NCBI GenBank assembly: GCA_028695735.1
Contig: JAQVIJ010000001.1
Span: 582,447 to 646,446, forward strand
Direction of reading: 5' to 3'
Source: Deltaproteobacteria bacterium
Lineage (GTDB): Bacteria > Desulfobacterota > Dissulfuribacteria > Dissulfuribacterales > DYLC01
DNA: 64,000 bases
Positions within the stretch are counted from its first letter, which is position 1, and every line of letters starts with the position of its first letter. Below the pieces are notes generated by a model that was not told the origin of the DNA, did no database searches, and saw nothing but the letters and a program-made list of their open reading frames with translations. This document shows positions 15,003 through 58,686 of this stretch, piece after piece. Made by a program: the position numbers and the translations under genes.

Positions 15003-15515
15003 ATGGAACGAAAAGGTCTGGTAACCATTCAAGGAAATCCGCTCACTTTAGTTGGAAATGAGCTGAAAACAGGGGATAGGGCACCTGATTTTCAGGTATT
15101 GAGCAAAGAACTCGCTGCGGTTTCCCTTGCTGATTTTAAGGGAAAAATAAAGGTGATCAGCGTTACGCCGTCTTTGGATACACCTGTCTGTGACCTGCAG
15201 ATTCGCCGTTTCAATCAAGAGGCCAGCGGCCTTTCAGACAAGGTGGTGGTCTTGAATATCAGTATGGACCTCCCTTTTGCCATCTCTCGCTTTTGCACTG
15301 CTGCCGGCATAGACAAGGTAGTGGCATTGTCAGACCACAGAGATGCCTCCTTTGGCATGAATTATGGCGTCTTGATTCAGGAGTTGCGTCTGTTGGCCAG
15401 GGCCATCTTTGTCATAGATACAGATGACTTCATTCGATACATGGAGATAGTCCCTGAAATAACCTCACCACCTGACTATGACAAGGCCATTCAGGCCATT
15501 AAAGGCCTTTTGTAG
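15003..15515 (+). CDS. tpx: Thiol peroxidase (atypical 2-Cys peroxiredoxin Tpx)
   Basis: 170 aa. GDRAPDF, KVISVTPSLDTPVCD (peroxidatic Cys) and ISRFCTAAGI (resolving Cys region). Confidence 0.9.
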   Translation: MERKGLVTIQGNPLTLVGNELKTGDRAPDFQVLSKELAAVSLADFKGKIKVISVTPSLDTPVCDLQIRRFNQEASGLSDKVVVLNISMDLPFAISRFCTAAGIDKVVALSDHRDASFGMNYGVLIQELRLLARAIFVIDTDDFIRYMEIVPEITSPPDYDKAIQAIKGLL

Positions 15516-16477: not shown

Positions 16478-18700
<2,223 letters not shown>

Positions 18701-33086: not shown

Positions 33087-33479
33087 TTACGATGTCTTGC
33101 GTCTGACCTTCACTCGCTCCACAATTTTTCGGTAGTAAACCTGGTCTGTCTCCAGAGAGACCTTGGTGCGGCGCAGCATGTTCATTTTTGTGATAAGCAG
33201 ATTGAGTTTGTTGATCTGGCGGTAGCGTTCTTCCTCTGTGGAAAGATGTTCTATCATGTCCATGGTGGTGCGAATCTCTCTGGCTGTCTCCAGCTCGGGA
33301 GGCAGATAACCGGCGTTTTTGAGGATCTTGTAGGCCATGCGCAGGTCAGGCGGCACAAAGGAATCGTCTTCGTATTCAATGGGACGGCCCTTGCCTTGTA
33401 GATTGTCGAACTCCCCGCGTTGCATGGCCTCCTGAATGCGCTGCTCCGCGATGTATTCCAGAAAATTCAGGTTACTCAT
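33087..33479 (-). CDS. DUF1992 (YhdN/DnaJC28-like) protein
   Basis: I trimmed the start to ATG 33479. The motif is AEQRIQEAMQRGEFDNLQGKGRPI. Confidence 0.75.
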   Translation of the reverse strand: MSNLNFLEYIAEQRIQEAMQRGEFDNLQGKGRPIEYEDDSFVPPDLRMAYKILKNAGYLPPELETAREIRTTMDMIEHLSTEEERYRQINKLNLLITKMNMLRRTKVSLETDQVYYRKIVERVKVRRKTS

Positions 33480-33510
33480 AAAATCATTATGGGGTTCGGC
33501 AGGCCTACTG

Positions 33511-34869
33511 TCAAGGCAGCAGGCTGTCTTCCGCCTTGCCCTCACGTTTTTCTTTCCATCTCACAGGAAAGGTGCAGGTTACACAGGTGCCTTTGCCCGT
33601 CTCGCTTTCAATGGAGATATCCCCCTGGTGTTCTTCCAGTATCTCTTTGACCAGAAAAAGACCAAGCCCTGTGCCGCTGGGCTTGGTGGTGACAGGCATT
33701 GTAAAGAGTTTTTCTTTTATGCCTGGGGGAATGCCCGGACCCTGGTCGCAGATGATGACAGACGGCCTTCCCTCCTGACGCAGCAGTTTGATTTGAATGG
33801 CGCTGTGTGCAGGCGATGCCTCCAGCGCATTTCTGAGAATGTGAATAAACGCTGTTTTCAGGACTCGTTTGTTGGCCATGATCTCCAGGGGTTCCTGTGA
33901 AATGTCTATAGCAAATTTTATGTCTTTTTTGGCCAGACCTGGCCGCCATGTGTCCACGACCTCAGTGATGATGTTTTTGAGGTCTTCTTTTGTGAACGAA
34001 CGAATCTCTTTTGAGGCCAACTCCTCGAAGTTCTTTACGAAATCAGAGAGTTCCTGAATGGCCTTCTGGATTACTTCAAGTTTTTGGCGGGTATTTTCCG
34101 TTAATGCAGGGTCCTTTCTCAAAATAGTGGAGATGAGGCCTCCTGTCACCATCACAGGATTTCGAATGCGATCTGCGATGCGCAGTGCCATCTGTATGGT
34201 GGAGTGCTCTCTGGCCATCGCCTCCATGTCCTGACTCAGTTGCAGAAGCTCTGCGTTCATTCGGTCCAGCTGGTGGTTTTGCAGACTGGTCTGCTCCAGC
34301 AGCCGCAGCACCTCTTCATGTTTGAGCCGAAGATTTTCCAGATATGACTCTTCCGTGTCTCGAAAGAGTTCGTTTCTGAAGGAGGCCTCTTTTTTTTGGA
34401 TTTCGTCCCACGACTTCTGAATGCCCCATTTGACGGCCCTGATTTCAAGCGGGCTGTCGGCTGTTCCACCGGTTATATCGACCTCATCCAGCACCCTCTT
34501 CAGCCTGTTGATGATAGGCGTCTTTTTTAGTTCCGCCATGTCGGAAGGACATGTATCGCCGTCCGGATTGGCGGCATTGCACAGCCTTTCGCTGCGAAAG
34601 AGGAGTTCGATGCCGCTCTGTTCCTGCGTGCCCTGCATATTGTTTTTTGGATGTTCCTTGCAGCAGAGGATACCCAGCGTGACTGTGCCGGTCCCGGACA
34701 TGTGGACCATCCAGCGGGTCATCTCGGATGCGGATACAGCCACCTGTGTGGTGGCGATACGGTTCAAACCACATATATGGCACAGCAGCTTGCTCTTCAT
34801 GCGCACCTTTGGAATATCCCCCGGTCTTTTTACCACCAGGGTTAGCACATGCAGCCGGTTTATAGCCAT
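33511..34869 (-). CDS. Histidine-kinase-like ATPase with a degenerate H-box (His replaced by Asp) and a Cys-rich N-terminal domain
   Basis: 452 aa. The HATPase_c domain is complete: N box (ILRNALEAS), G1 (DQGPGI), G2 (GTGLGL). The DHp H-box reads ADRIRNPV, whereas the canonical kinase at 50317 reads AHEIRNPL. The start overlaps the upstream gene by 10 nt. Confidence 0.7.
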   Translation of the reverse strand: MAINRLHVLTLVVKRPGDIPKVRMKSKLLCHICGLNRIATTQVAVSASEMTRWMVHMSGTGTVTLGILCCKEHPKNNMQGTQEQSGIELLFRSERLCNAANPDGDTCPSDMAELKKTPIINRLKRVLDEVDITGGTADSPLEIRAVKWGIQKSWDEIQKKEASFRNELFRDTEESYLENLRLKHEEVLRLLEQTSLQNHQLDRMNAELLQLSQDMEAMAREHSTIQMALRIADRIRNPVMVTGGLISTILRKDPALTENTRQKLEVIQKAIQELSDFVKNFEELASKEIRSFTKEDLKNIITEVVDTWRPGLAKKDIKFAIDISQEPLEIMANKRVLKTAFIHILRNALEASPAHSAIQIKLLRQEGRPSVIICDQGPGIPPGIKEKLFTMPVTTKPSGTGLGLFLVKEILEEHQGDISIESETGKGTCVTCTFPVRWKEKREGKAEDSLLP

Positions 34870-36023
34870 CTCAGCACCGCCAGTGAGGAGTCGTCCATGG
34901 GTGTGTTTTTTGGCTGAAACAGGATCTGTGACCAGATGGCGGCGGATGCGCGGTTTGACAGATAATCCGTCAGGTCCGGTGGGTGAAGCACGCCGTCTGA
35001 GTGCATCACGATCAGGAGGTCTTCTGCGATGTCGTTGATGGAAGCCATCTGAATGGGATGTTGGCCGGGGGGTGTGTGCATGTTGCCCACCAGCCCTGGC
35101 CGAGGGACAACAATATGGCCCTTACCGGCAGAATAGATGGTGCATGCTGCGTTTCCCACGCCTACGGCCAGTATCTTTTTCAATCTGTAATCTATGGATA
35201 GCACTTGCACGGATGCCCCGTTTGAACCGGACAATGCTGCATTCAGTGCCTCAATGACCTGATCTGGTTCGTGGCTCACCGGCAGGTCTTCCAGCAGCCG
35301 GGCTGCGTCACGGGCTATGATGGCTGCGGTTTCTCCGTGGCCTGTGGCGTCTATGAGGGCCATACGGCAGAAAGAGCCGTCGTCTTGCAGGCATATTGTG
35401 TCTCCGGATTGGGTCTGACCAGGGCAGGGCCGAACAAGGCCAGAGACATGCAGCGACGGGCCTTTTGGTTTGTTGAATATGTCCGAGGGTTGTTCTTCAA
35501 TTGTGGCGGAGACTATCGTGGTATAGTTTTTATAAACAGGCGGGCGAGGACATGGCGAGAGCCCGAATTGCATGGAACAGATATGGAGCCGGTTTGACAG
35601 GCGTTTCACTGTGCCAAGGCCTATTCCCAGGCCTCCGGAGGTGCTGAAGCCATCTTCCAGGGCCTTTTCCACATTGGGAATGCCTGGCCCTTCATCAAGG
35701 CTCGCTATGGTTATGACAGGAATGCCATTCAGGTACATGCCGCTCATGCGTATCATGCCGTTTTGTGTGGCATGTGCCAGGTGGTTCTGGGCCAGCTCGC
35801 TGGCTATGAGGATTGTTTTCTGTCTGCGGGCAGGAGATGCAAAAAGCTGTCCAGCGGCTATACCCGCAAGCTGTCTGGCTATGGCCACATCCTTGGGCGT
35901 GCTTACAGGAATTTCAGACCATACGAAAGGCAGGCCGTTTTCCAACTGCTGCCCTTTGCGGCCTTCAGGCACATGGTCTGCGTCTATTCTGTCTGTTGTG
36001 ATGTTTGTCATGGCGACAGCCAT
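34860..36023 (-). CDS. Fused RsbT/HATPase-like domain and PP2C (SpoIIE/RsbX-type) phosphatase
   Basis: 387 aa. The N-terminal half has ELAQNHLAHA...DEGPGI...GLGIGLG. The C-terminal half has PPM motifs SGDTICL..., DATGHGETAA and MHSDGV. Confidence 0.7.
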   Translation of the reverse strand: MAVAMTNITTDRIDADHVPEGRKGQQLENGLPFVWSEIPVSTPKDVAIARQLAGIAAGQLFASPARRQKTILIASELAQNHLAHATQNGMIRMSGMYLNGIPVITIASLDEGPGIPNVEKALEDGFSTSGGLGIGLGTVKRLSNRLHICSMQFGLSPCPRPPVYKNYTTIVSATIEEQPSDIFNKPKGPSLHVSGLVRPCPGQTQSGDTICLQDDGSFCRMALIDATGHGETAAIIARDAARLLEDLPVSHEPDQVIEALNAALSGSNGASVQVLSIDYRLKKILAVGVGNAACTIYSAGKGHIVVPRPGLVGNMHTPPGQHPIQMASINDIAEDLLIVMHSDGVLHPPDLTDYLSNRASAAIWSQILFQPKNTPMDDSSLAVLRWL

Positions 36024-36436
36024 TTTATGACCTCGACTCGTGTGCCGTGTGGGAGCAGGTTGTCGATTTGAACCTTGTCAGATAGATTGGTGATGCCCGA
36101 AAGCCCCAGACCAAGCCCATTGTCCTCGGAAAATCCCGGCTGGCTGGCCTTTTTGATGTCAGCTATGCCTGGGCCTGAGTCGGTAGCCACTATCCTGAAA
36201 CCCAGCCTCCCTTCCTGTGTCAGCACCTCCAGGCAGATTTCGCCTCTGCCGGCGTGTCTCAGAATGTTTCCACCCAGTTCGTTTATGATGGTCAGCAGTT
36301 CGGTTGCCGGCTGTATGCGAATATGCAGGGAGTTGAAAAGGGCCCTGGCCTTTGTCCTGATCTTGCTGAGGCTGCTTGAAGGAGTGACGGCCGCGCATAT
36401 GCGTCGGCGGGCTGTGGTTGCGGCAGGGCTGTTCAT
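36008..36436 (-). CDS. RsbT-like anti-sigma regulatory Ser/Thr kinase (stressosome kinase)
   Basis: 142 aa. NELGGNILRHAG, TDSGPGI and GLGLGLSG (GHKL ATPase). Confidence 0.8.
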   Translation of the reverse strand: MNSPAATTARRRICAAVTPSSSLSKIRTKARALFNSLHIRIQPATELLTIINELGGNILRHAGRGEICLEVLTQEGRLGFRIVATDSGPGIADIKKASQPGFSEDNGLGLGLSGITNLSDKVQIDNLLPHGTRVEVIKWLSP

Positions 36437-36786
36437 CGCAATCTCGCAAGTGCCTGCTCCACATCCAGGGCAAACTCTACATTTTTGAGCCGAATGTTGA
36501 AATCTGTCAGTGTGAGGGCTACCGGTACCTGAATGCCTGCCACTACGACTCGCGACCTCAGCATGTGCAGAAAGGAGACAAGCTCTTCGATGTGTTCGGC
36601 AAGAAAGGTGTCCATGACCTCCACGTCGTGCATGTCTATAATTACCGCTCGGGTCTTGTTTTTTGAAACCTGTTTGCCAAGGTGATGGAGAAGGTGTTCT
36701 ATGCTCGAATCATCTATTTCTTCCTGAATAGAGACCAGCAGTATGTCTTCAAGGGAGAAGGTGGAAAAGGGCTCCATGCCGCTCAA
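36433..36786 (-). CDS. RsbS-like single STAS-domain protein
   Basis: 117 aa STAS fold. The phosphorylatable position reads IIDMHDVEVMDTF, with Thr where B. subtilis RsbS has Ser59. ATGA overlaps occur at both ends. Confidence 0.8.
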   Translation of the reverse strand: MSGMEPFSTFSLEDILLVSIQEEIDDSSIEHLLHHLGKQVSKNKTRAVIIDMHDVEVMDTFLAEHIEELVSFLHMLRSRVVVAGIQVPVALTLTDFNIRLKNVEFALDVEQALARLR

Positions 36787-37658
36787 TCCTTCAAAATGTC
36801 TCCATTTTTGAGGACATTCATGTCAGCCTTTCTTTTCTGTATCTCCATGAGGGCCAGGTGCAGGGCATCGCTCATGCGGCTGCGCACGGTTATGGTGGTC
36901 ATATTCACGCCAAGATGGGCCATGGTCAGGGCTATATGAGGCGAGATGCCGGTAAGAATGGCCTCGCTTCCCATGAGTCTCGTGGCGTCAACGGTCTGAA
37001 GGAGCCGGTTTGCCACCTCCGTATCCACAGTTGGAACACCGGTGATGTCGATTATGATAAATGGGGCCCTGGTCTTTTCTATGGTCTCCAGCAGGCGCTC
37101 CATGGCCATGCGCGCCCTATGGCTGTCCAGCGTGCCGATGAGCGGCAGGGCCAGCACACCTTCCCAGAGTTCTATTACCGGCGTGGAGAGTTCCAGCACC
37201 TCGTCTTGCAGGTGGCGGATATTCTCTTCCTGTCTGCGAAGGAGCTCCTCCTGTTGCTTTTGAATCAGTTGTTCCCGTTCAAGGCGTTCAGATATGTCAA
37301 CGAAGTGTTCCACACACCCAACAATCTTGCCCTCATGGTTTTTGAGGGGTCGGGCTGCATATTCTATGGGGATGTCCTTGCCGTTGTGGTGTAGAACCGT
37401 CTGGCCGTGGCACACCTCATCTGTTTCTGTTGCTATGAGACAGGCGCATTTCTCCGTGCCGCACATCTTGGTATCAAATATCTCATTGCATTTGCGGTCA
37501 AAGCACTCCCCTGGTGTCTTACCTACTATGGATGCCGCACTCTTGTTGAGGAGCAGAATGTTGTGTTCCAGATCGGTGACGAAGATGCCGGAGGGCACAG
37601 CGTTTATGATCTCGAACAGAAAGCCTTCGTCGTTTTTGTAATCACTGATGTTTTCCAT
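36783..37658 (-). CDS. RsbR-like PAS-STAS stressosome sensor
   Basis: 291 aa. N-terminal PAS domain with a Cys cluster (CFDRKCNEIFDTKMCGTEKCAC), a coiled linker, and a C-terminal RsbR-type STAS domain (STPVIELWEGVLALPLIGTLDS...IIDITGVPTVDT...ILTGISPHIA). Confidence 0.8.
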   Translation of the reverse strand: MENISDYKNDEGFLFEIINAVPSGIFVTDLEHNILLLNKSAASIVGKTPGECFDRKCNEIFDTKMCGTEKCACLIATETDEVCHGQTVLHHNGKDIPIEYAARPLKNHEGKIVGCVEHFVDISERLEREQLIQKQQEELLRRQEENIRHLQDEVLELSTPVIELWEGVLALPLIGTLDSHRARMAMERLLETIEKTRAPFIIIDITGVPTVDTEVANRLLQTVDATRLMGSEAILTGISPHIALTMAHLGVNMTTITVRSRMSDALHLALMEIQKRKADMNVLKNGDILKD

Positions 37659-37704: not shown

Positions 37705-37857
37705 TAACCCCACTCTGGCTTCCCTTATCAGGGTAGGGGATAACCCCACCCCGGCCCTCCCCTTGTCAGGGGAGGGGATAACCCCCCTTTTTCGTTACAT
37801 TCGTCACTGTACAAACTTCCCCCCTGATAAGGGGGGATTGAGGGGGGTTGTTTTTGA
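37705..37857. repeat. Composite G/C-tract hairpin repeat element, copy A
   Basis: Two tandem units of AACCCCAC..CCCTCCCCTTGTCAGGGGAGGGGATAACC, followed by CTTCCCCCCTGATAAGGGGGGATTGAGGGGGGTTGTTTTTGA. Near-identical modules occur at 54081-54267. Confidence 0.85.
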
Positions 37858-37875: not shown

Positions 37876-38559
37876 TCATGCCGGTATGCCTATGGATAAT
37901 TTTTGGGCATCCATGCGCAATGTCCAGCCGATTGCAGCTGTTTTTACTGTAAGATATTTCTTGAGAAGCGAGGCCGGATAGACGGTTTCATAGGCCTGTT
38001 GAGCTGAGTTCGTTTTTTGTTCTTCCGTAAATGGTGAGCCATTCTGGCTGAATGTTATGGAGTATGCCGCAGGATTGTCTGTAATTGAGCAATCTATTGC
38101 AAAATTGCATGGTGTTTTTTGCCGCAGGCTTTCTATGCTCAATGCAATGCAGCTTCCCATGATCCCGCGCGCCGTCGCTTCTTGCGTTATGGTAAACACC
38201 TGTTTCTGAAACAGGTTGATTGTTTTATTTACCTTGTGTTTGAAAAATAAATCCGCATGCCAGAAAGTCAGTTCTTGTTCTATCATTTCATTCAGAATTA
38301 TCGGCTGGTCTTGCGTATTATTTGTGTCAGCATGATTTGCCATGCATTGTATCTGTTGTTGAAGTCTTGTTATGTTTGCTTGCAGATTGTCAATTTGCTG
38401 CTGATTGATGGATTTGATCTTATCTATCAATTCTGTCTGCATGGAGATTACCTGCAATGGACCATTTAGATTGTGGACAAGGCCTTTGATCAGCATGGCT
38501 GTTAATTGGGCTGGAAGATTGTCGAAAAGGTACTGGCATTCATCATTTGTGAGATTCAT
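37876..38559 (-). CDS. Hypothetical protein, distantly histidine-kinase-like (degenerate)
   Basis: 227-aa AT-rich ORF. It has an H-box-like GLVHNLNGPLQVI motif and a coiled region. No recognisable G1/G2 ATP-binding boxes. Confidence 0.4.
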   Translation of the reverse strand: MNLTNDECQYLFDNLPAQLTAMLIKGLVHNLNGPLQVISMQTELIDKIKSINQQQIDNLQANITRLQQQIQCMANHADTNNTQDQPIILNEMIEQELTFWHADLFFKHKVNKTINLFQKQVFTITQEATARGIMGSCIALSIESLRQKTPCNFAIDCSITDNPAAYSITFSQNGSPFTEEQKTNSAQQAYETVYPASLLKKYLTVKTAAIGWTLRMDAQKLSIGIPA

Positions 38560-38571: not shown

Positions 38572-39210
38572 TTATATTTTGGCAAACAGTTTCTGCTTCA
38601 TGATATTGAATTCGTCCAGAGATATCAGGCCTTTTTCGTAAAGACTGCTCAGCCGTTCCAGATGTGTCAGCGCATCGTTTCCGCTCTGTGTCTGCGCATA
38701 ATAGGCCGACGGCGGTATGTCGGATGGATAGAGGAATATGGGCTGGCTGGGCTGGACCGGCGGTTCCGTCTGTTTCAGGCGGTCGAGTTCCTCGATCCGC
38801 TTCAAAAGCGCCTGGTTTTCTTTGAGCATCAGGATCCTCTCGCAGGCATTCTGCACACAGATCTCCAGTTCGTCCAGTCGAAACGGCTTGCGGATGTAAT
38901 CGTAGGCCCCGCCGTGAATGGCCTCTATGGCGGTGTCGAGGGAGGCATAGCCTGTCATGATGATTATCATGATCTCTGGATAGAGTTCCTTGGCCTTTTT
39001 CATAACCTCCATACCGTCTGCGCCCGGCATCATGAGGTCGGTGATGAGCAGGTCGTATGGTTGTGATTGGAGGGCTGCTATGGCATCCAGGCCGTTATAG
39101 ACGATCTGGAGCCGTCTTCCCGGCTGGGAAAGGCTGTTTACGAGCAGATCCCCTGTGGCCTTTTCATCTTCTGCGATAAGGATTCTGATGGATGGGCGTT
39201 CATCTGTCAT
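38572..39210 (-). CDS. Response regulator with receiver domain and a C-terminal SHOCT-like domain
   Basis: 212 aa. REC motifs (ILIAEDE, LLITDLMMPGADG, MTGY, KPF). The C-terminus LERLSSLYEKGLISLDEFNIMKQKL resembles SHOCT. Confidence 0.8.
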   Translation of the reverse strand: MTDERPSIRILIAEDEKATGDLLVNSLSQPGRRLQIVYNGLDAIAALQSQPYDLLITDLMMPGADGMEVMKKAKELYPEIMIIIMTGYASLDTAIEAIHGGAYDYIRKPFRLDELEICVQNACERILMLKENQALLKRIEELDRLKQTEPPVQPSQPIFLYPSDIPPSAYYAQTQSGNDALTHLERLSSLYEKGLISLDEFNIMKQKLFAKI

Positions 39211-39659: not shown

Positions 39660-42338
39660 GTGTGGAGGTGGACAGTGCAAGGGCAAAATTCGTTCAAAAC
39701 AGACCCCCTTTTAAAAGAAAACAATGCAGGGCTCGGCCAGACAGATTCGGCTACAGAGTCCAGATTCATAGAATTCTGTCTATTACCCCTTCAAGATACC
39801 CTCTCAAGGCTTCGCACATCAATAAACGGTCTATCCTCGGAAGAGGCCGTCCGCAGATTGGCTGAATACGGGCCAAATGAGCCTGCCGAAACCAAAAGAC
39901 TGGGCCTTTTGCTGGAACTCCTTTCGAGATTGAAAAATCCGTTGAACCTTCAGCTGGCGGCCATCGCCTTTCTGTCCTTTTTGCTTGGGGAGGGGCTGGC
40001 CTCGGCTATCGTCCTGTCCATGATCGTTCTGAGTATGGGGTTATCCTTCGTGCTGGACAGGCGTTCTACAAAGGCCGTGGAGTCACTGGGTAAGCGTGTT
40101 CAGTCCAGGACCGTTGTGCTGCGGGACGGCGTCGAGACGGAGATTCGTATCTCCGAGGTCGTGCCGGGGGATATCGTGGTGCTCAGCGCCGGTTCCATTA
40201 TCCCTGCCGATGTGCGCTTGATTACGGCCAAGGATTTTTTTGTCAGCGAATCGGCCTTGACGGGTGAGTCCATGCCGGTGGAAAAGACCTCTGCGCCTTT
40301 ATCAGGTGGAGAGAAGAATAGAGCCATTGCCCTGAGTAACGCCTGTTTCCTGGGGACATTTGTGGTCAGTGGAGCGGCCAGGGCCCTGGTTGTCAACACA
40401 GGCAAGGGCACGCTTTTTGGCTCCATTGCCCAGAGCCTTACAGAACACCGGCACGAGACGAGTTTCGATAAGGGGATCAAGTCCCTGACCTGGCTGCTGA
40501 TGCGCCTTATGCTGGTGGTTGTGTCTATAGTCTTTTTAATCGTTGGGTTGACCAAAGGAAACTGGCTGGAGGCCCTGCTTTTCGGCCTTTCCGTGGCTGT
40601 GGGTCTTACGCCCGAGATGCTTCCCATGATTCTCACAGTGAACCTGGCCAAGGGTGCCCTGAGCATGGCGAAAAAGAAGGTCATCGTCAAACAGCTGCCT
40701 GCCATTCAGAACTTCGGTGCCATAGACATTCTATGTACAGACAAGACAGGCACGCTCACGCAGGACCGGGTGGTGCTGGAGAGGCATGTGGACATCATCG
40801 GGAACGAGAGCGAGGATGTCCTGAGCTATGCCTATCTCAACAGTTATTACCAGACAGGCCTTAGAAGCCTCATCGACCGCGCTGTACTCGACTATACGAA
40901 TCTGGATGCGGAACGCAATTGCAGGCTGGTGGACGAGCTGCCCTTTGATTTCCAGCGCAAACGCATGTCCGTGGTGGTGGACTATGAAGGCGACCATGTG
41001 CTCATCTGCAAGGGTGCTGTGGAGGAGATATACGGCTGTTGTACGCACTATCAGATAGGTGACGAGGTATATCCGCTGATAGACCTGCTCAGGGCCGAAC
41101 TCTTTGAGGACGTGGAGGAGCTGGGCAGAAACGGTTTTCGCGTGTTGGCAGTGGCATATCGGGAGTTTTCCCGGACCAAGACATCTTTTACTGTGGCTGA
41201 TGAGAGCAATCTGACCTTGCTCGGCTACATGGCCTTTTATGATCCGCCCAAGGATTCGGCCATGGACGCCATTCGTCTGCTCAAAAAGGCGGGGGTCAGC
41301 GTGAGGGTGCTGACCGGTGACAACGCCCTGGTGACTCAGAAGGTGTGTGTGGATGTGGGGTTGCAGGTGGGCCGCGTGGTGACTGGAAGTGAGCTGGCCG
41401 CCCTTTCTGAAAGGGATTTCGCAAAGGTGGTGCACGACGCCCAAGCCTTCGTCAAGCTCAGCCCTTCACAGAAGGAACAGATAGTCAAGGAGTTGCGCTC
41501 CCATGGTCATGTGGTGGGCTTTATGGGAGACGGTATCAATGACGTCCCTGCCCTGAAGGCTGCGGATGTGGGCATCTCTGTGGATTCAGCCGTGGATGTG
41601 GCCAAGGAGGCCGCGGATATCGTATTGTTGGAGAAGAGCCTGCTGGTCTTGGAAGAGGGGATTTTGGAGGGCAGGCGGGTCTTTATGAACATCATAAAAT
41701 ATATTCGAATGGGCGCCAGTTCCAATTTCGGCAATATGTTCAGCGTGATAGGGGCCAGTTATTTGCTGCCGTTTCTGCCCATGCAGCCCATTCAGATACT
41801 TACAAATAATCTCCTCTACGATTTTTCCCAGACAGGCATTCCAACGGACAATGTGGATGAGGAGCTCATTGCAAAACCGCTCAAATGGGATATCGAGGGC
41901 ATCAAGCGTTTTATCTTTTGCATAGGCCCCATCAGTTCCGTATTTGACTATGCCACATTCGCCCTTATGTGGTTTTATTATCGGGCGAATATCTTTGTGA
42001 ATGAAGCGGCTACGGCGGCCCAGAAGGGTTATGCCGAGCGTCTTTTTCAGACAGGCTGGTTTGTTGAGTCGCTTATTACTCAGACCCTCATCGTGTATAT
42101 CATCAGAACCAAGCGGATTCCTTTTGTTGAGAGTCAGCCGTCCCTGCCCATGCTCCTTGTAACTGTAATGGTTATGGCCTGTTGCGCCTGGTTGCCTTAT
42201 TCACCACTTTCTTCGTATCTTGGCATGGTGCCGCTGCCGGCGTCCTACTGGCTCTGGATAGCCGGATTCATGCTGTCCTACGGCGTTATAACCCACTGGG
42301 TCAAGCTGTGGTTTTATAAAAAATATAGAGGTCATTGA
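39660..42338 (+). CDS. mgtA: Magnesium-translocating P-type ATPase
   Basis: 892 aa. CTDKTGTLTQ phosphorylation site, TGES, GDGINDVPALKAADVGISV and an MgtA-type N-terminus (GLSSEEAVRRLAEYGPNE). The start is non-ATG and uncertain. Confidence 0.9.
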   Translation: MWRWTVQGQNSFKTDPLLKENNAGLGQTDSATESRFIEFCLLPLQDTLSRLRTSINGLSSEEAVRRLAEYGPNEPAETKRLGLLLELLSRLKNPLNLQLAAIAFLSFLLGEGLASAIVLSMIVLSMGLSFVLDRRSTKAVESLGKRVQSRTVVLRDGVETEIRISEVVPGDIVVLSAGSIIPADVRLITAKDFFVSESALTGESMPVEKTSAPLSGGEKNRAIALSNACFLGTFVVSGAARALVVNTGKGTLFGSIAQSLTEHRHETSFDKGIKSLTWLLMRLMLVVVSIVFLIVGLTKGNWLEALLFGLSVAVGLTPEMLPMILTVNLAKGALSMAKKKVIVKQLPAIQNFGAIDILCTDKTGTLTQDRVVLERHVDIIGNESEDVLSYAYLNSYYQTGLRSLIDRAVLDYTNLDAERNCRLVDELPFDFQRKRMSVVVDYEGDHVLICKGAVEEIYGCCTHYQIGDEVYPLIDLLRAELFEDVEELGRNGFRVLAVAYREFSRTKTSFTVADESNLTLLGYMAFYDPPKDSAMDAIRLLKKAGVSVRVLTGDNALVTQKVCVDVGLQVGRVVTGSELAALSERDFAKVVHDAQAFVKLSPSQKEQIVKELRSHGHVVGFMGDGINDVPALKAADVGISVDSAVDVAKEAADIVLLEKSLLVLEEGILEGRRVFMNIIKYIRMGASSNFGNMFSVIGASYLLPFLPMQPIQILTNNLLYDFSQTGIPTDNVDEELIAKPLKWDIEGIKRFIFCIGPISSVFDYATFALMWFYYRANIFVNEAATAAQKGYAERLFQTGWFVESLITQTLIVYIIRTKRIPFVESQPSLPMLLVTVMVMACCAWLPYSPLSSYLGMVPLPASYWLWIAGFMLSYGVITHWVKLWFYKKYRGH

Positions 42339-42340
42339 TC

Positions 42341-43147
42341 ATGGATACACTGTTAGACGCCCTTCAGGAAGGAAGATTGTTTGAGCTGCCGGAGAACGAC
42401 AAGGCGGACGCCATGCAGTTTCTCGCCCACATCATTGAGGCCTTTCCCGACATACCGCCGGGCACTGATATCGTTTCTGATGTCCTGGCCAGGGAAAAGG
42501 CCATCAATTCCTCCATAGGCAACGGATGGGCATGTCCGCAGGCAAAGGTGCCTTTTGAAGGAGACCTCATGTGTGTTGTTGGGTGGAGCCCCAATGGTAT
42601 TGATTACGGGGCCAGGGACGGTCGTGCCGTTTCGCTGATGGTCATGCACCTTGTGCCCATAAACCAGCGGAATCATTATCTGCGTGAGATTTCCATACTG
42701 GCCAAGGCCATAGAGGCCAGACCCGATGTGTCAAGGCTGGAGCGGGCCGCTGATTTGAATGATGTCAGGAATTATCTGCTGGACCTGATCTCCGAGACCA
42801 AGGGCATAGTCGGGCCTGACTCCAGGGCCCGTATGATAAAGCTTCAGGCGAAGATGATGCCCGAACCTCAAGGGGTATGGGATGTAGCCGGCCTGACAGT
42901 GGAGCCGGTTACTCTCATATTCGGGCCTGGTATGCAGAAGCCGCTGGTGTTGGGGCATAACGCCGGACTGGTGGAATGGCTGGACAGCGTTTCGGGTGTG
43001 TTGGAGTCTATCGAGACCGATGGTTTTTATCAGAATGGCAGTTGGCGGATCATGCGCTGGCAGAGTACGAATTTTCAGGGTGGGCGAGTGCTTTACAAGT
43101 GCATCGCCATGGCGACCGGTGGTTTGCCGGTTCGAAAATCCAGATAA
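42341..43147 (+). CDS. PTS EIIA(Ntr/Fru)-like domain protein with a degenerate phospho-site and an unknown C-terminal domain
   Basis: The start lies 3 nt after the mgtA stop. The EIIA_2-like N-domain reads GNGWACPQAK where canonical proteins have G-I-A-I-P-H-A, so His is replaced by Gln. The roughly 130-aa C-terminal region has no motif I recognise. Confidence 0.55.
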   Translation: MDTLLDALQEGRLFELPENDKADAMQFLAHIIEAFPDIPPGTDIVSDVLAREKAINSSIGNGWACPQAKVPFEGDLMCVVGWSPNGIDYGARDGRAVSLMVMHLVPINQRNHYLREISILAKAIEARPDVSRLERAADLNDVRNYLLDLISETKGIVGPDSRARMIKLQAKMMPEPQGVWDVAGLTVEPVTLIFGPGMQKPLVLGHNAGLVEWLDSVSGVLESIETDGFYQNGSWRIMRWQSTNFQGGRVLYKCIAMATGGLPVRKSR

Positions 43148-48827: not shown

Positions 48828-50315
48828 ATGGCTCTTATCCTTTTGGTGGACGATGATCGAAGCCTGCGGGAGTTTTTAGAGATATTCCTCAAAAAGGAGG
48901 GGTATAGTGTCCTGTCTGCGGCCAATGCCGCAGAGGCCTTGAATCTCCTGAAGGCCCATGAAGGGATTAGAGTGGTGATCAGTGATATCCGTATGCCTGA
49001 CATGAGTGGCATTGAGCTATTAAGGCATGTCAAGGCCTTGAGGCCAGAGTTGCCGGTGGTCTTGATCACTGCCTTCGCCTCCATGGATACGGCCATCTCG
49101 GCCATGAAGGAAGGGGCATGGGACTATCTGACCAAGCCCTTTCGATTAGATGAGGTGCGCAGGGTCTTACAGAATGCCTTAAGTAGTGGCGTATCGTCAG
49201 CAACTACCGCAGGCCCTGATGCAGTGAGTGTTTCTGACCGGATACTCCATGCCCGGGGGCAGACCGCCGAGGCCAGTCCTGGTGTCTGCCCCCCTATACA
49301 TCGTCTGGATGCCATGGTGGCATGCAGTCCTGCCATGCTCAAGGTCTTTCAGCTCATTAAAAGGGTGGCCTCCAGCCCTTCCAGCGTCTTGATAACAGGT
49401 GAAAGCGGCACGGGAAAGGAACTGGTTGCACGGGCACTGCACAACCTGGGCAATCGGGCAAGCCAGCCCTTTGTGGTGGTGAATTGCGGCGGCATTCCAG
49501 AAAACCTGCTGGAGACCGAGCTCTTTGGTCATGTAAAAGGGGCATTTACAGGTGCAGATCGAGAGAAGGTGGGGCTCTTTGCCCTGGCGGACACAGGGAC
49601 CCTCTTTTTGGATGAGATAGGTGAGTTGCCCATGTCGCTTCAAGTGAAGTTATTGCGGGTGGTGCAGCAGAAGACCTTTATGCCTGTGGGTGGCACCAGG
49701 GAACAGCGAGTGGATGTGCGCATCGTTGCTGCCACCAACAGGGATTTGGAACAAGAGGTCATGGCCAAAAGGTTTCGAGAGGACCTCTTCTATCGTCTAA
49801 ATGTCATTCACATACACATCCCTCCACTTCGGGAGCGGCCTGAGGATATCCCTGTGTTAGTTCAGTATTTTTTGGATAAATTTGCCAGGGAACAGGGTAA
49901 GAGCCTTCAGGGTATCTCCAGTTTTGCCATGCAGATTCTGCAGGGGTACTCCTTCCCCGGAAATGTCAGGGAGTTGGAAAACATAGTGGAAAGGAGCGTT
50001 GCCCTGGAGACCTCCGGTATTTTGCTGCCGGAAAGCCTCTCCATCTCCCGTTTCAAAGAGAAGACAGAGACCTCTTTGGCTCAACAAGGGGGAAAAGGGG
50101 AGAGCAGCGAGGAGATATGCGTGATCCCTTCCTTTGAGGCATTTGAGATACCCAGGGAAGGAATGGAGCTGGACGGATTTCTGGCGCGTATTGAAAAGAC
50201 TCTGATTTTAAAGGCATTGCAGGCAGCCCATGGTTCCAAGACAGAGGCCGCAAGGCTTCTAAAGATCAACTTTCGTTCCTTTCGCTATCGTCTGGATAAA
50301 TACGGCATAGAATAA
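48828..50315 (+). CDS. Sigma-54-dependent response regulator (REC-AAA+-HTH, NtrC family)
   Basis: 495 aa. REC (VISDIRMPDMSG), GESGTGKE Walker A, GAFTGA motif and a C-terminal Fis-type HTH. Confidence 0.9.
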   Translation: MALILLVDDDRSLREFLEIFLKKEGYSVLSAANAAEALNLLKAHEGIRVVISDIRMPDMSGIELLRHVKALRPELPVVLITAFASMDTAISAMKEGAWDYLTKPFRLDEVRRVLQNALSSGVSSATTAGPDAVSVSDRILHARGQTAEASPGVCPPIHRLDAMVACSPAMLKVFQLIKRVASSPSSVLITGESGTGKELVARALHNLGNRASQPFVVVNCGGIPENLLETELFGHVKGAFTGADREKVGLFALADTGTLFLDEIGELPMSLQVKLLRVVQQKTFMPVGGTREQRVDVRIVAATNRDLEQEVMAKRFREDLFYRLNVIHIHIPPLRERPEDIPVLVQYFLDKFAREQGKSLQGISSFAMQILQGYSFPGNVRELENIVERSVALETSGILLPESLSISRFKEKTETSLAQQGGKGESSEEICVIPSFEAFEIPREGMELDGFLARIEKTLILKALQAAHGSKTEAARLLKINFRSFRYRLDKYGIE

Positions 50316-50316
50316 A

Positions 50317-52095
50317 ATGCTCAATCATTTTCGCCGCGCCTTTCATTCGAAGGCCTCAGAAGAGGCAAAAGATACCCGCTTTTCCTTTGAATGGGAGTTG
50401 TTTTCTCCTGAACCCCTGGATTATAGGCAGTTTCAATGGCTCACATGGGGCAGGCTGGTCCTGGTGCTTTTTCTGCTTGCCGCCATCTTTCTGTTTTCCA
50501 ACTACCTCGGCCCCATTGGAAGGCTGCCGGATGTCTTGGTCAAGGTGGCCTATCTCTCTTTGGCTGCCCTGGCCGTAACCTATGGTTACATTCAGTGGTA
50601 TAAGACAGGCAAGTGGTTGAGACAGTTGTCCCTGCTTCAGATCTCTTTGGACATTCTGTTTGTAGCAGCGGTGGTCTATGTAACAGGAATGGCATTTAGT
50701 CCGTTTCTGTTTCTGTTCCCTGTCATTGTGGTGGCTGCCTGCCTGTTGCAGGGCAGACAGGGCGGTCAGTTTGCAGCGGTTGCCTGTACTGTGCTGTATG
50801 TGGGGATAGTCGGGCTGGACAGGGCCTTTTTTCTACAGGACACCTCCAATCTCATTGTTTTTTTTGTGAATATCATCGTGGTGAATATCACGGCCCTGTT
50901 GGTAGGCGTCCTGGCCGAGCGCTTGAGGCGTGCGGAACGCCGTCTCTCAGTGGCCGTTGTGGATCTGAGGCGTTTAAGGGAGATGGAGCGGCATCTGGCC
51001 GACAATTTAGTGTCAGGCCTTGTGATGTTAAATACTGAAGGTCATATTTTGGCATTGAACAGACGCGCAGAGGCCATTTTGGGGGTTAGGTCCACTGATT
51101 ATGCTGGCAGGCTGCTTTCTGAGCTCTGGCCTGCCATAGGGCCTGATTTTGATGAGATCAGGGCCTGGTTTGCAAAAACAGAGGGTCTGCGCAGGGAGAT
51201 ACTCCACAATGCACCTTCAGGTGAGATCCTTTTGGGGCTTTCAGGATTTGCCATGCAGGATGAAAAGGGTGGGCTTTTGGGCTATGGCATCATCTTTCAG
51301 GACCTGACCGAGATCAGACGGCAAGAGGAGAGGCTTCGACGAGTGGAGAGGCTGGCCTCTTTGGGCGAAATGGCCGCAGGCATGGCCCATGAGATTCGAA
51401 ATCCCCTGGCCTCCATATCAGGGGTGGTGGAATTTTTGCAGGAAGGGGGCATGGTAACCGCCGATGGCGCAAAACTTCTGGAAATCCTGCAGCGGGAGAT
51501 TCAACGGCTGACCGAGCTCACTCAGGCCTTTTTGTTGTATGCCAGGCCTGAAAGGGGCGGTGAGCAGCCTGTAAATCTCTTGAATGCCATAAATGAGACC
51601 CTGGGGCTTTTAAGCAGCCGCAAGTTGGCTGGCCTGCATGTGAATATACAGGTCCCTTCCGAGCTGTGTGTCGTGGTCAATCCCACCCAGTTTCGTCAGG
51701 TATTGTGGAATCTGCTTTTAAATGCTGTGCAGGCCATGATGCCCAAGCTGGAGAAGGGAGAGGATGTCACGCTATTTGTGGGAGTGGAACCAGTGAGCCA
51801 GGTGGGCGTTTTCGATGCGGTTGAGGCGAAAACTACTCAAAAAACCAGTGAGCAAAAGGCTCTCAGTCGAGTCAGCCTTATCGTGGAGGACAGTGGAGTG
51901 GGGATACCTGAAGGCCAGTTGAGTCGCATATTTGAGCCGTTTTTTACCACTCGAGGCGATGGCACTGGCCTGGGGCTTTCCATCGTGCAGAGGTTGGTGG
52001 AGGCCTGGGGAGGCTCTGTGGAGTGTTCTTCTCAAGAGGGTGTGGGGACCAGATTCAGGGTGCTGTTGCCTGTTTCAGATTCTCCAAAAACCTGA
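50317..52095 (+). CDS. Membrane sensor histidine kinase (multi-TM N-domain, PAS, HisKA, HATPase_c)
   Basis: 592 aa. 5-6 TM helices, canonical H-box MAHEIRNPL and G boxes (DSGVGI, GTGLGLS). Confidence 0.85.
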   Translation: MLNHFRRAFHSKASEEAKDTRFSFEWELFSPEPLDYRQFQWLTWGRLVLVLFLLAAIFLFSNYLGPIGRLPDVLVKVAYLSLAALAVTYGYIQWYKTGKWLRQLSLLQISLDILFVAAVVYVTGMAFSPFLFLFPVIVVAACLLQGRQGGQFAAVACTVLYVGIVGLDRAFFLQDTSNLIVFFVNIIVVNITALLVGVLAERLRRAERRLSVAVVDLRRLREMERHLADNLVSGLVMLNTEGHILALNRRAEAILGVRSTDYAGRLLSELWPAIGPDFDEIRAWFAKTEGLRREILHNAPSGEILLGLSGFAMQDEKGGLLGYGIIFQDLTEIRRQEERLRRVERLASLGEMAAGMAHEIRNPLASISGVVEFLQEGGMVTADGAKLLEILQREIQRLTELTQAFLLYARPERGGEQPVNLLNAINETLGLLSSRKLAGLHVNIQVPSELCVVVNPTQFRQVLWNLLLNAVQAMMPKLEKGEDVTLFVGVEPVSQVGVFDAVEAKTTQKTSEQKALSRVSLIVEDSGVGIPEGQLSRIFEPFFTTRGDGTGLGLSIVQRLVEAWGGSVECSSQEGVGTRFRVLLPVSDSPKT

Positions 52096-54356: not shown

Positions 54357-54385
54357 TTGACATGGCCAATCAAATATGCTTAATA
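54357..54385 (+). promoter_or_regulatory. Candidate sigma-70 promoter of the perR-like gene
   Basis: TTGACA (54357-54362), a 17-nt spacer, TTAATA (54380-54385). Confidence 0.5.
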
Positions 54386-54397
54386 ATAATCATTCAC
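54379..54397. promoter_or_regulatory. Fur/PerR-box-like operator overlapping the perR -10 element (autoregulation candidate)
   Basis: CTTAATAATAATCATTCAC matches 14 of 19 positions of the classical Fur box GATAATGATAATCATTATC. Confidence 0.4.
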
Positions 54398-54414
54398 ATC
54401 AAGGGGGTGTAAAT

Positions 54415-54825
54415 TTGAACACAAGTAGTGGAAAATTACGTAACACAGCCCAACGGACTATTATTTTAAATGCCTTAAGGGGCTTAAAAACCCATCCGAC
54501 TGCGGATGAGCTGTATGAAGTGGTCAAAAAAGAGATGCCGAAGATCAGCCTTGGCACCGTCTATCGCAATCTGGTGATGCTGGCAGAGATAGGCATGATT
54601 CGAAAGCTGGAGACAGCCGGCAAGCAGATGCGTTTTGATGGCGACATCTCTGCCCATGTGCACATCAGGTGTAGCAGATGCGGCAGAGTGGATGACATCT
54701 GGGCAGACCCCATATCCATTCCAGAGCACATGAAGACCATTGACTTTCGCGGCTACCAGGTGACCGGCTATGCCCTGGAATATGAGGGAATCTGTCCTGA
54801 TTGCGCCAAAAAAGGCATGAACTGA
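54415..54825 (+). CDS. perR: Fur-family peroxide-responsive repressor (PerR-like)
   Basis: Fur fold (ISLGTVYRNLVMLAEIGMI) with HIRCSRCG...CPDC sites. The ORF-track ATG at 54376 lies inside the predicted promoter, so I propose TTG 54415 (or GTG 54409) after the AGGGGG RBS. Confidence 0.75.
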   Translation: MNTSSGKLRNTAQRTIILNALRGLKTHPTADELYEVVKKEMPKISLGTVYRNLVMLAEIGMIRKLETAGKQMRFDGDISAHVHIRCSRCGRVDDIWADPISIPEHMKTIDFRGYQVTGYALEYEGICPDCAKKGMN

Positions 54826-54910
54826 TTTCAATTTTTGCATCTTGTCACTGTTTTTTGCCATAATTTTGCCCGTCTTGTCATTTGGATGTGGTAAAGGGCT
54901 TATTCTGCGC

Positions 54911-54925
54911 TTATAATTTTTATTG
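54911..54925. promoter_or_regulatory. PerR-box-like site overlapping a TATAAT -10 upstream of rbr
   Basis: TTATAATTTTTATTG against the B. subtilis PerR box TTATAATNATTATAA (11 of 14). TATAAT lies at 54912-54917. Confidence 0.4.
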
Positions 54926-54959
54926 TCTTTTGATTTGAAATTTACATACAGGAGGAGAC

Positions 54960-55535
54960 ATGAAAAAACTCAAAGGAACCCAGACCGAACGCAACATACT
55001 GACCGCCTTTGCCGGTGAATCCCAGGCACGAAACCGCTATACCTTTTTTGCCGGCCAGGCCAAGAAGGATGGCTATGTGCAGATAGCCGATATCTTTGAG
55101 GAGACGGCCAACCAGGAGAAGGAACACGCCAAGAGGCTCTTTAAGCTGTTGGAGGGCGGCGAGGTGGAGATTCAGGCCGCCTTTCCCGCCGGCATCATCT
55201 CCAATACCTATGACAATCTCATAGCCGCAGCCAATGGAGAAAACTATGAACAGACCATCATGTATCCTGGTTTTGCAAAGATAGCCATAGAGGAGGGCTT
55301 TCAGGAATTGGCCTGTATCTTTGAGGCCATAGCCGTGGCCGAACGCCAGCACGAGAAGCGCTATAGGGAGCTGGCTGCCAACATAGTGGCGGATCGGGTC
55401 TTCAAGCGGGATACAGAGGTGGTCTGGCGCTGCCGCAACTGCGGTTATCTGCATAAGGGTAGTGCCGCTCCGGAAAAGTGCCCTGCCTGTGCCCATCATA
55501 AGGCACATTTTGAGCTTTTGGCAGAGAATTGGTAG
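54960..55535 (+). CDS. rbr: Rubrerythrin
   Basis: 191 aa. Diiron four-helix bundle (E..E..H pairs: [29 protein letters not shown]) and a C-terminal rubredoxin-like CRNCG...CPAC. Confidence 0.95.
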
Positions 55536-55593
55536 TTTTTTGTATTTGCAACTCAAACCATATCAAACTAAATCAAAAAAGGAGGTACTTGTC

Positions 55594-56232: not shown

Positions 56233-56260
56233 TTACAGATTCCATTCATAAGGAGGACAT

Positions 56261-57601: not shown

Positions 57602-57616
57602 TTGTTACAAAAGGCA

Positions 57617-57645
57617 CTTCGGCCTGTCTTTGGGGCAGGCCGAAG
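57617..57645 (+). other. Intra-operon 10-bp stem-loop between the cytochrome gene and dfx
   Basis: CTTCGGCCTG / CAGGCCGAAG with a 9-nt loop. No T-run follows. Confidence 0.5.
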
Positions 57646-57686
57646 CGAATTCAATCCCAAAACATACCTTGAAAGGAGGTATTCCA

Positions 57687-58663: not shown

Positions 58664-58686
58664 GAATTTATTGAAGGAGATTTTAT

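Follow-up and report, generated by a model that had tools for sequence, protein, structure and literature searches.

The window analysed here is a stretch of 64,000 nucleotides (nt) from a Deltaproteobacteria bacterium of the Dissulfuribacterales (GCA_028695735.1, contig JAQVIJ010000001.1, positions 582,447 to 646,446). Its minus strand carries an operon of five genes, termed R, S, T, X and K, that encode an RsbR-like sensor, an RsbS-like partner, an RsbT-like kinase, a kinase-phosphatase fusion and a histidine-kinase-like protein with Asp at the phospho-His position. An original prediction, made from the sequence alone, had described five translationally coupled genes in this order, with overlaps of 4, 4, 16 and 10 nt. 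The open reading frames (ORFs) and their domains are given below, with lengths in amino acids (aa).

36783-37658, minus strand: R, an ORF of 291 aa, with a PAS domain (aa 14-130), a coiled linker and a STAS domain (aa 150-270); Pfam PAS_4 1.4e-16, STAS 1.7e-12
36433-36786, minus strand: S, 117 aa from TTG 36786, or 114 aa from ATG 36777
36008-36436, minus strand: T, an ORF of 142 aa
34860-36023, minus strand: X, 387 aa, or 383 aa from ATG 36011, with a GHKL kinase domain (aa ~40-150) and an RsbX-type PP2C domain (aa ~190-387), from Pfam and profile matches
33511-34869, minus strand: K, an ORF of 452 aa
34375-34869, minus strand: N-terminal domain of K (aa 1-165), a degenerate RsbT-like GHKL domain
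33985-34374, minus strand: signalling helix and DHp-like hairpin of K (aa ~166-295), from alignments and the predicted structure
33511-33984, minus strand: CA (HATPase_c) domain of K (aa ~296-452), from the HATPase_c match

When each ORF is taken from its first start codon, the R-S, S-T, T-X and X-K overlaps are 4, 4, 16 and 10 nt, and the predicted arrangement is borne out to the nucleotide. The start of S is ambiguous, as the junction sequences also allow ATG 36777 instead of TTG 36786; depending on the start chosen, the reading frames of R and S overlap or lie at most 6 nt apart. X probably starts at its second ATG, at 36011, which gives an ATGA overlap of 4 nt with T and matches the gene calls of relatives.

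K matches HATPase_c in Pfam (4.2e-22), with a HisKA match below the cut-off. Its H-box reads IADRIRNP, compared with SHEFRTP or AHEIRNP in true kinases, and Asp233 (codon at 34171-34173) aligns with the phospho-His. The His-less histidine-kinase-like ATPase of the original prediction is thereby confirmed, the change being precisely from His to Asp. An alignment of K was used to scan 185,579 species genomes, which yielded 80 loci; there are 62 distinct K-family loci overall. Asp occupies the phospho-His position in 61 of these 62, the exception being the locus L059, which has His. Among 30 full-length relatives of K, Asp233 is near-invariant, and Asn237 and Pro238 are invariant. An Asn at position +4 is required for the phosphatase activity of HisKA kinases, according to PMC3510030. 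In the clade of the window, the CA domain retains intact N, G1 (DQGPGI), F and G2 (GTGLGL) boxes. Many Desulfobulbaceae-type orthologues have lost G1 and/or G2 and kept Asp233, the signalling helix and the N-terminal domain. The signalling helix, LF.DTEESYLENLR.KHEEVLRLL, is highly conserved.

The N-terminal domain of K aligns with the T family over 131 columns (hhalign probability 97.2%, E-value 3.6e-11). It is a dead RsbT-like domain, since the Asn of its N-box is replaced by Arg and its G1 and G2 boxes are lost. The AlphaFold2 model of K has a mean pLDDT (predicted local distance difference test score) of 81.6. In this model, the N-terminal domain is GHKL-like, with a succession beta-alpha-alpha-beta-beta ... 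alpha-beta-beta followed by a long helix, and a pLDDT mostly between 81 and 94 apart from two short stretches at 56 and 68. A single long helix (aa 173-252) runs into the DHp-CA core, for which Foldseek returned ZraS, HK853, WalK and DivL (4q20), with E-values from 1e-13 to 7e-16. The sequence profile of the N-terminal domain gave nothing meaningful against the PDB (best E-value 0.15). A HMMER search of 1.84 billion proteins matched 19 representative clusters, nearly all of 430-455 aa, and the domain is essentially confined to the architecture of K.

The original prediction considered X and K together as a non-canonical output pair. K stands as a predicted output that is not a sigma factor; X reads better as a protein of control and feedback, and K, not the pair, is the predicted output of the module.

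In a distant RSTX locus, L007, the downstream gene encodes a His-containing hybrid kinase with an intact RsbT-like domain at the position of the N-terminal domain of K, which suggests a possible route by which K arose. Cores with Asp for His (..VADRVRNP..) were also seen in metagenome-assembled genomes (MAGs) of Nitrospirota, Deferribacteres and Chloroflexota, there with no STAS context, at L069 8275-9756, L074 3773-5302, L081 86-1453 and L085 8209-9750, and in L076 and L082. They are joined to ordinary sensors, in REC-PAS and Tll0287-like architectures, and this wider class of Asp-type kinase cores appears to be undescribed. MAGs bearing K further encode a His-containing paralogue of 360-380 aa (L067-L090; for instance L071 8042-9178 and L077 8710-9837), the DHp of which is very similar to that of K (LALRIAHxIRNPVMIIGG); a related protein, P0077, has a hydrophobic N-terminus. 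The paralogue is a candidate partner or ancestor of K.

Gene order was counted in 48 K-family loci of Thermodesulfobacteriota with more than 3.3 kb of upstream DNA, the neighbours being classed by phmmer with the domains of the window as queries.

R-S-X-K: 24 of 48 loci
R-S-T-X-K: 19 of 48 loci
R-S-K: 3 of 48 loci
K alone: 2 of 48 loci (L033 and L059)

This neighbourhood survey, a check proposed with the original prediction, thus showed K to be immediately preceded by R and S in 46 of the 48 loci, which span several orders, the reading frames overlapping as a rule. R, S and K make up the irreducible set, which is nearly always joined by X, and by T in about two fifths of the loci. The hosts of this conserved operon are sulfur bacteria and belong to Dissulfuribacterales, Dissulfurimicrobium, Dissulfurirhabdus, Thermodesulfatator, Thermodesulfobacteriaceae and Desulfobulbaceae/Desulfobulbia, and the nearest relatives of the window are Dissulfuribacterales MAGs (86%).

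The STAS domain of R has stressosome RsbR chains as its best solved relatives (E-values of 1.9e-26 to 5e-25), the top matches being 7o0i_B of V. vulnificus (1.9e-26) and 6qcm of Listeria (5e-26). With its PAS_4 and STAS matches in Pfam, R is the PAS-STAS sensor of the RsbR kind that had been proposed. Its phospho-site residues are Thr213, in VPTVDTE, and Thr245, in IALTMAHLG, at the positions of Thr171 and Thr205 of B. subtilis RsbRA. S is a single STAS domain (Pfam 2e-11) and matches best the RsbS of B. subtilis (6jhk, 1.3e-15) and Listeria (6qcm, 2.1e-15). The Thr attributed to its phospho-site is Thr60, in VEVMDTFLAE, which aligns with VDMIDSFIAK of B. subtilis RsbS and so with the phospho-Ser. 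The B. subtilis phospho-sites are numbered Ser59 in RsbS, and Thr171 and Thr205 in RsbR.

T matches HATPase_c_2 (2.3e-10) and is a small GHKL Ser/Thr kinase with intact N-box, G1 and G2, the residues E53, N57, D86, G88, G90, G107, G109 and G111 being invariant. A profile of the T family, built from 12 orthologues, has SpoIIAB as its best PDB match (3.6e-12). The RsbT-like kinase of the original prediction is thus found with intact ATP motifs, its likeness to RsbT being one of position and size. Where a standalone T is present, Thr occurs at the R site in 23 of 23 cases and at the S site in 24 of 25. In loci that lack T, the S site is a Ser in 27 of 29 cases, and that of R is Ala or Ser. This correlation would fit a difference in kinase specificity.

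X matches SpoIIE (2.4e-7) and, below the cut-off, HATPase_c_2 (7.6e-5), in agreement with the predicted HATPase-PP2C fusion. With a profile of 24 relatives, the C-terminal half matches MtX of Moorella (3zt9, 1.1e-32) and RsbX of B. subtilis (3w40, 2.3e-25), and the N-terminal half matches SpoIIAB (3e-10) and RsbW. The kinase residues E76 and N80 of the N-box, D110, G112 and G114 of G1, and G133 and G135 of G2 are invariant in the 24 sequences, as are D208, D225, G228, H229, G230, D343, G344, D377 and D378 of the PP2C metal site. As both catalytic sets are invariant, X is a two-enzyme protein, with an RsbT/RsbW-type kinase and an RsbX-type phosphatase, and not a degenerate fusion. It departs from the single-domain form of RsbX, of about 200 aa, by its length of 383-387 aa and its intact N-terminal GHKL domain. 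X is the sole source of a kinase domain in the 24 loci that lack T. X is better read as an RsbT-RsbX fusion serving control and feedback rather than output. No description of such a fusion was found in the searchable literature, a mention in the rsbRST survey of Pané-Farré et al. 2005 being possible.

A fusion of this kind also occurs in a Trueperaceae MAG (L005, 5657-10653), where a protoglobin-STAS RsbR and RsbS are directly followed by the HATPase-PP2C protein and then a hybrid kinase that has REC and Hpt domains, standalone RsbT being absent. The kinase-phosphatase fusion therefore extends well beyond Thermodesulfobacteriota and is also found with haem-type sensors.

No RsbV, RsbW or SigB-type genes had been noticed near the operon. 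Pfam was run on 49 of the large ORFs of the window, operon flanks among them, and phmmer on all its ORFs of at least 60 aa. No sigma-70 family protein, RsbV or RsbW was found among the 49 ORFs, and phmmer revealed no STAS or small GHKL protein beyond R, S, T and X, in agreement with the claim. RsbU_N was not matched (Pfam, E-value up to 0.01) on X, on K or on the products of the neighbouring genes U1, U2 and DUF1992, which are presented below. No paralogue of R was seen near the operon. Next to the module in the 62 related loci, phmmer likewise gave no additional gene of the STAS (RsbV-like) or the small GHKL (RsbW-like) kind, and no sigma-70 factor was present in those contexts that had Pfam annotation. 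The constant downstream neighbour is K or another histidine kinase. A canonical RsbVW-sigma module that relatives keep next to the operon and that was lost here, the case that would have undone the original prediction, was rejected on this survey of the 62 loci.

A histidine kinase or histidine-kinase-like gene flanks the module in three clades. In the window this is U1, in Dissulfurimicrobium it is a PilS-like kinase, and in Desulfobulbaceae it is a kinase with a Cys-PAS. In Desulfobulbaceae-type loci, the true Cys-PAS kinase lies directly 3' of K; in some other clades, a sigma-54 response regulator and the PilS-like kinase lie directly upstream of the module. The window itself encodes a response regulator of the sigma-54 type together with a PAS histidine kinase resembling PilS, at 48828-52095 (plus strand), 10 kb from the operon. 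This pair is orthologous (62% and 41% identity) to the pair found upstream of R-S-T-X-K in Dissulfurimicrobium and two other MAGs, which suggests an older linkage to the operon that was broken in the lineage of the window. A pairing of K with the PilS-like kinase through similar DHp domains was considered and set aside, the identity of about 26% being uninformative. In loci of the Thermodesulfatator type, the end of the operon shows an overlap of about 20 nt between K and the gene of a protein of 566-838 aa with a hydrophobic N-terminus and no Pfam match, which is followed by a gene for a DUF1318 protein (L018 10272-13351, with equivalents in L023, L024, L026, L033 and L035). This linkage is kept even in L033, where R and S are missing upstream.

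The original prediction noted a Cys-bearing PAS domain as the input. The Cys-rich PAS is confirmed and can be refined to six residues, C52, C57, C66, C71, C73 and C115, that are invariant in 56 of 56 orthologues and include an OrpR-like pattern. The spacing C57-x8-C66-x4-C71 parallels C52-x8-C61-x3-C65 of OrpR from Desulfovibrio vulgaris, in which a redox-sensitive [4Fe-4S] cluster is bound by the C-x8-C-x3-C of the PAS domain (PMC8359166). The PAS of R also aligns (E-value 5e-12) with that of a PAS-sigma-54 activator encoded in the window, with C57, C66 and C71 in register with the C-x8-C-x3-C of the latter. The nearest solved PAS by sequence, weakly (E-value 4e-4), is that of NreB (9WEX), which carries a [2Fe-2S] cluster (PMC13478379). 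From these motifs, the input is most likely an Fe-S or other metal cofactor on the PAS of R, which would report a redox, O2 or sulfide state.

The PAS-sigma-54 activator (61864-63699, plus strand) has a C-x8-C-x3-C-x2-C, which is the OrpR pattern, and adjoins an oxidative-stress defence island. This island is dense; together with related genes elsewhere in the window, it covers 54376-60662 (plus strand), 16478-18670 (minus strand) and 15003-15515 (plus strand). The genes of the island encode a Fur/PerR-like regulator, rubrerythrin, peroxiredoxin, a multihaem cytochrome, desulfoferrodoxin, ferritin, a double rubredoxin and a flavodiiron protein. Outside the island, the window also has a catalase-peroxidase gene and a Redoxin gene, the latter between genes for pyruvate:ferredoxin oxidoreductase subunits. 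Such oxidative-stress genes fit an anaerobe in need of redox and O2 sensing.

The operon is flanked by the following elements, of which U1 and U2, just upstream, lie beyond the coordinates of the original prediction.

33087-33479, minus strand: DUF1992 (Pfam DJC28_CD, 5.3e-27), 130 aa from ATG 33479
37705-37850, no strand assigned: GC-rich palindromic repeats, two to three copies of ~38 nt in the 217-nt gap between U1 and R
37876-38559, minus strand: U1, 227 aa, short histidine-kinase-like protein with a weak HisKA match
38572-39210, minus strand: U2, 212 aa, response regulator (Response_reg 4e-25, SHOCT 1e-5)

U1 keeps the H-box His (VHNLNGPL, with KG.VHNL.G invariant), has a degenerate G1, and lacks the ATP lid and G2 by deletion. 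Its kinase relationship is based on hhalign and one weak PDB match: hhalign relates it to the K family (probability 83.5%, E-value 8e-6) and aligns its His29 with Asp233 of K. Nine clusters of U1 were found, and a distant relative, P0159, has a full CA domain with lid and G2. The AlphaFold2 model of U1 is of low confidence (pLDDT 46.7), too poor for a fold search. U2 is a REC-SHOCT regulator encoded six genes upstream of K on the same strand, other clades having different neighbours. Its phospho-acceptor Asp is at about position 58 (LLITDLMMPG), as read by eye, and the gene is syntenic in L001, L008 and L012. Divergent from U2, at 39660-43147 (plus strand), lie genes for an MgtA-like P-type cation ATPase and a protein with an EIIA-2 domain of the phosphotransferase system (PTS), an arrangement that is syntenic in L001 and L008.

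The repeats between U1 and R form CCCCTTGTCAGGGG-type hairpins. The orthologous gap is of only 82 nt in L001 and of 29 nt in L008, and the repeats are therefore an insertion specific to the genome of the window. They could be a terminator, an element resembling repetitive extragenic palindromic (REP) sequences or a binding site for a regulator. Membership in a window-wide repeat family was rejected: the 13-nt core has two exact copies, both in the gap, and its near matches are within chance.

The DUF1992 gene lies 31 nt downstream of K, as had been reported, provided that it starts at ATG 33479; its longest ORF, with a GTG start, would overlap K. A promoter-like TTGACA-17 nt-CATAAT at 33514..33486 (minus strand) agrees with the sigma-70 consensus at 11 of 12 positions and overlaps the stop codon of K. 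The -10 box ends 6 nt before the ATG, with no Shine-Dalgarno sequence, and DUF1992 may be transcribed from a promoter of its own, as a leaderless message. The gene stands beside K in L001, L008, L011 and L012 only and is absent from all other K loci; it was rejected as a component of the system on account of its absence outside the clade of the window.

The domain identities, motif conservation and gene order described above are observations, from which we infer all interactions and activities that follow. In the preferred reading, the products of the locus are a STAS scaffold of the stressosome type and, connected to it as output, a pseudo-histidine kinase; the redox-sensing scaffold would gate K, and K would modulate a two-component pathway. 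The chances of this reading being right or wrong are judged to be evenly balanced. The six-Cys PAS of R would bind an Fe-S cluster or other metal and report the redox, O2 or sulfide state. The STAS domains of R and S would mediate their assembly, and the assembly would bind RsbT-like domains. Upon a signal, T and/or the kinase domain of X would phosphorylate Thr60 of S and Thr213 and Thr245 of R. The RsbT-like domain of X would deliver the PP2C of the same protein to the scaffold, where the PP2C would strip these phosphates and reset the system. The pseudo-RsbT domain of K would sit at an RsbT-type site of the STAS scaffold without phosphorylating it, in place of T or in competition with it, and the state of the scaffold would be passed to the K dimer through the conserved signalling helix. 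Being unable to autophosphorylate on His, K would most likely be an adaptor or a phosphatase-type modulator of a two-component partner, in the manner of DivL. That K may bind or dephosphorylate a partner is suggested because the family tolerates the loss of ATP binding, but not that of Asp233, Asn237 or the N-terminal domain. Candidate targets would be U1 and U2 in this genome and the neighbouring true histidine kinase elsewhere.

Several points weigh against this reading. The intact CA domain of K in the clade of the window argues for an ATP-dependent activity that a pure adaptor leaves unexplained. U1 and U2 are found only in the close clade of the window, and the DHp of K has the low identity to the PilS-like kinase given above, so that the partner assigned to K is a candidate only. 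In L033 and L059, K occurs without R or S nearby. The sequence of T is not separable from those of RsbW or SpoIIAB, the top PDB matches being SpoIIAB. The correlation between T and Thr may be a mere split into two clades. The gene set seems equally compatible with a megadalton particle, like the pseudo-icosahedral stressosome of about 1.5-1.8 MDa in which R and S sequester the kinase, and with a small partner-switch complex.

A stronger form of the proposal, in which K represents an undescribed class of stressosome output, is considered unlikely. K would then combine an RsbT-derived docking domain with a core in which Asp233 is functional, as a phospho-acceptor or a mimic of phospho-His, and the STAS scaffold would gate a two-component pathway directly. 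If the pseudo-RsbT domain took the place of RsbT on the scaffold, the minimal R-S-K loci would be explained.

K could alternatively be an active kinase and not an adaptor, using ATP to phosphorylate its own Asp233 (as an acyl-phosphate, the form known from receiver domains) or else a Ser or Thr of some substrate, the STAS proteins or another; the loss of His would then reflect a changed chemistry, not a lost function. The conservation of the N, G1, F and G2 boxes throughout the T-containing clade, down to 42-47% overall identity, is in keeping with this idea, and the near-invariance of Asp233 does not suggest a random substitution. His-to-Asp variants with a full CA domain and normal sensors (REC-PAS, Tll0287-like) in Nitrospirota and Deferribacteres are as expected of working enzymes. 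The many Desulfobulbaceae-type orthologues without G1 and/or G2 indicate, however, that ATP use is not the common function of the family. Literature searches found no autophosphorylation of Asp by a CA domain. We likewise know of no precedent for it, and an active K is held to be quite improbable.

The defects of K and U1 are complementary, with Asp233 and an intact CA domain in K, and an H-box His with a broken G1 and a deleted lid and G2 in U1, the two residues being aligned by hhalign. In this lineage, the two proteins could thus form a split histidine kinase: controlled by the STAS scaffold, K would phosphorylate U1 in trans, and the phosphate would go on from U1 to U2. U2, U1, R, S, T, X and K are all co-oriented, with only 29 nt between U1 and R in L008. 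In Desulfobulbaceae, where the CA domain of K is dead, a complete kinase lies next to it, so that each clade has at least one His and a live CA domain nearby. This scheme is nevertheless thought distinctly doubtful, as K with an intact CA domain is distributed much more widely than U1 and U2, the difference in H-box type (IADRIRNP against VHNLNGPL) does not lead one to expect a heterodimer, and the model of U1 is unreliable (pLDDT 46.7).

An ordinary RsbRST(X) partner switch, in which T, once released, has a target encoded elsewhere in the genome (for instance a phosphatase resembling RsbU, or a sigma/anti-sigma pair) and K is a co-located bystander, would suit the intact standalone T, a view of the genome limited to 64 kb and the failure of Heinz et al. 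(PMC9237108) to detect an interaction between VvRsbT and VvD1 of Vibrio in 2022, but is very improbable given that K follows the module in 46 of 48 loci from several taxonomic orders, that 24 loci lack T and 3 lack both T and X yet keep R, S and K, that the N-terminal domain of K is itself RsbT-like and essentially found only in the K architecture, and that Pfam gave neither RsbU_N on X, K and the nearest neighbours nor a sigma-70 protein among the 49 ORFs of the window.

To our knowledge, stressosomes are well understood only when they feed a SigB cascade; most other rsbRSTX modules adjoin two-component genes. Such modules with two-component or second-messenger outputs are already known (Pané-Farré 2005, as cited in PMC9237108 and PMC10014275), for instance from Vibrio and Moorella. 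The closest parallel is the rsbRSTX module with VvD1 and VvD2 of Vibrio vulnificus and V. brasiliensis (Heinz 2022, PMC9237108; Jia 2016, PMC4976288; PMC10014275), which likewise has an R-S-T-PP2C series without SigB cascade, directly followed by a histidine-kinase-type gene. There too R is a sensor for a gas or redox-type signal, and VvRsbR (7o0i_B) is the best match of the R STAS among solved structures. The Vibrio sensor is a haem globin, whereas R has a six-Cys PAS; the Vibrio PP2C is a single domain (PMC9237108), whereas that of X is fused to a second kinase domain. The downstream protein differs here by its Asp in place of His and its N-terminal pseudo-RsbT domain, and no cyclic di-GMP (c-di-GMP) output domain is present.

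The MtR-MtS-MtT-MtX system of Moorella thermoacetica (PDB 2vy9 and 3ztb for MtS, 3zt9 for MtX) is similarly a minimal RSTX module outside Bacillales with an output other than a sigma factor. MtX, to which the PP2C domain of X is most similar, has 193 aa and one domain only. The N-terminal domain of MtR is of a non-haem globin type and not a PAS, and the output is a GGDEF protein instead of a pseudo-kinase. Quin et al. are said to have linked the Moorella stressosome to a diguanylate cyclase in 2012. With the stressosomes of B. subtilis and Listeria, the locus shares a homologous STAS core (RsbS 1.3e-15, RsbR ~1e-25), the phospho-sites, a putative RsbT-type gene after rsbS and an RsbX-type phosphatase; it differs in that no RsbU, RsbV, RsbW or sigma gene was found among the ORFs scanned in the window, and in the Thr of S instead of Ser.

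Outside the stressosomes, DivL of Caulobacter (PMC4211667; PDB 4q20) is a DHp-CA protein with a replaced phospho-His that is thought to act by partner binding, and 4q20 is among the fold matches of K. It is described as a histidine pseudokinase repurposed to sense the state of a response regulator (PMC4211667). DivL has Tyr at the His position and N-terminal PAS domains, whereas K has Asp, an N-terminal pseudo-RsbT domain and a place in a STAS operon, so that the likeness is that of the general histidine-kinase fold only. OrpR and NreB (PMC8359166; PMC13478379) have Cys ligands in the helical part of the PAS, with which the Cys of R are comparable. They differ from R in having three and not six invariant Cys, and in their outputs, a sigma-54 AAA+ domain or a kinase compared with STAS; cluster binding by R is a prediction. 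Rv1364c of Mycobacterium tuberculosis (PDB 3ke6), a PP2C-RsbW-STAS fusion that matches the X profile (1.8e-10), also joins a PP2C and a GHKL kinase of the anti-sigma type in one chain of a partner-switching system. Its PP2C precedes the kinase, in reverse of X; the chain includes a STAS domain as well, and the link is to a sigma factor instead of an RsbR/RsbS pair.

The locus therefore differs from the known rsbRSTX kind in four features: the six-Cys PAS sensor, the RsbT-RsbX fusion able to replace RsbT, the pseudo-kinase output with Asp for His, and the RsbT-like docking domain on this output. No description of histidine kinases with Asp for His, or of the K family, was found in the searchable literature, where a mention by Pané-Farré et al. 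2005 is again possible, and no description of an RsbT-like docking domain on an output kinase was found there.

The conserved His-to-Asp histidine-kinase core is not restricted to K, since it recurs in other sensor architectures. The R-S-K and R-S-X-K loci are natural minimal versions of the system, X shows that a kinase-phosphatase fusion can stand in for a standalone RsbT, and the candidate Fe-S PAS input suits anaerobes. With an output protein that carries its own RsbT-like domain, the K family offers a concrete and testable hypothesis for the crossing of a signal from a stressosome to a two-component pathway. If the stronger form of the proposal is true, the docking of K, together with the intact RsbT-like domain on the L007 kinase, would be the missing physical link between stressosome and two-component system that was not found in the work on Vibrio.

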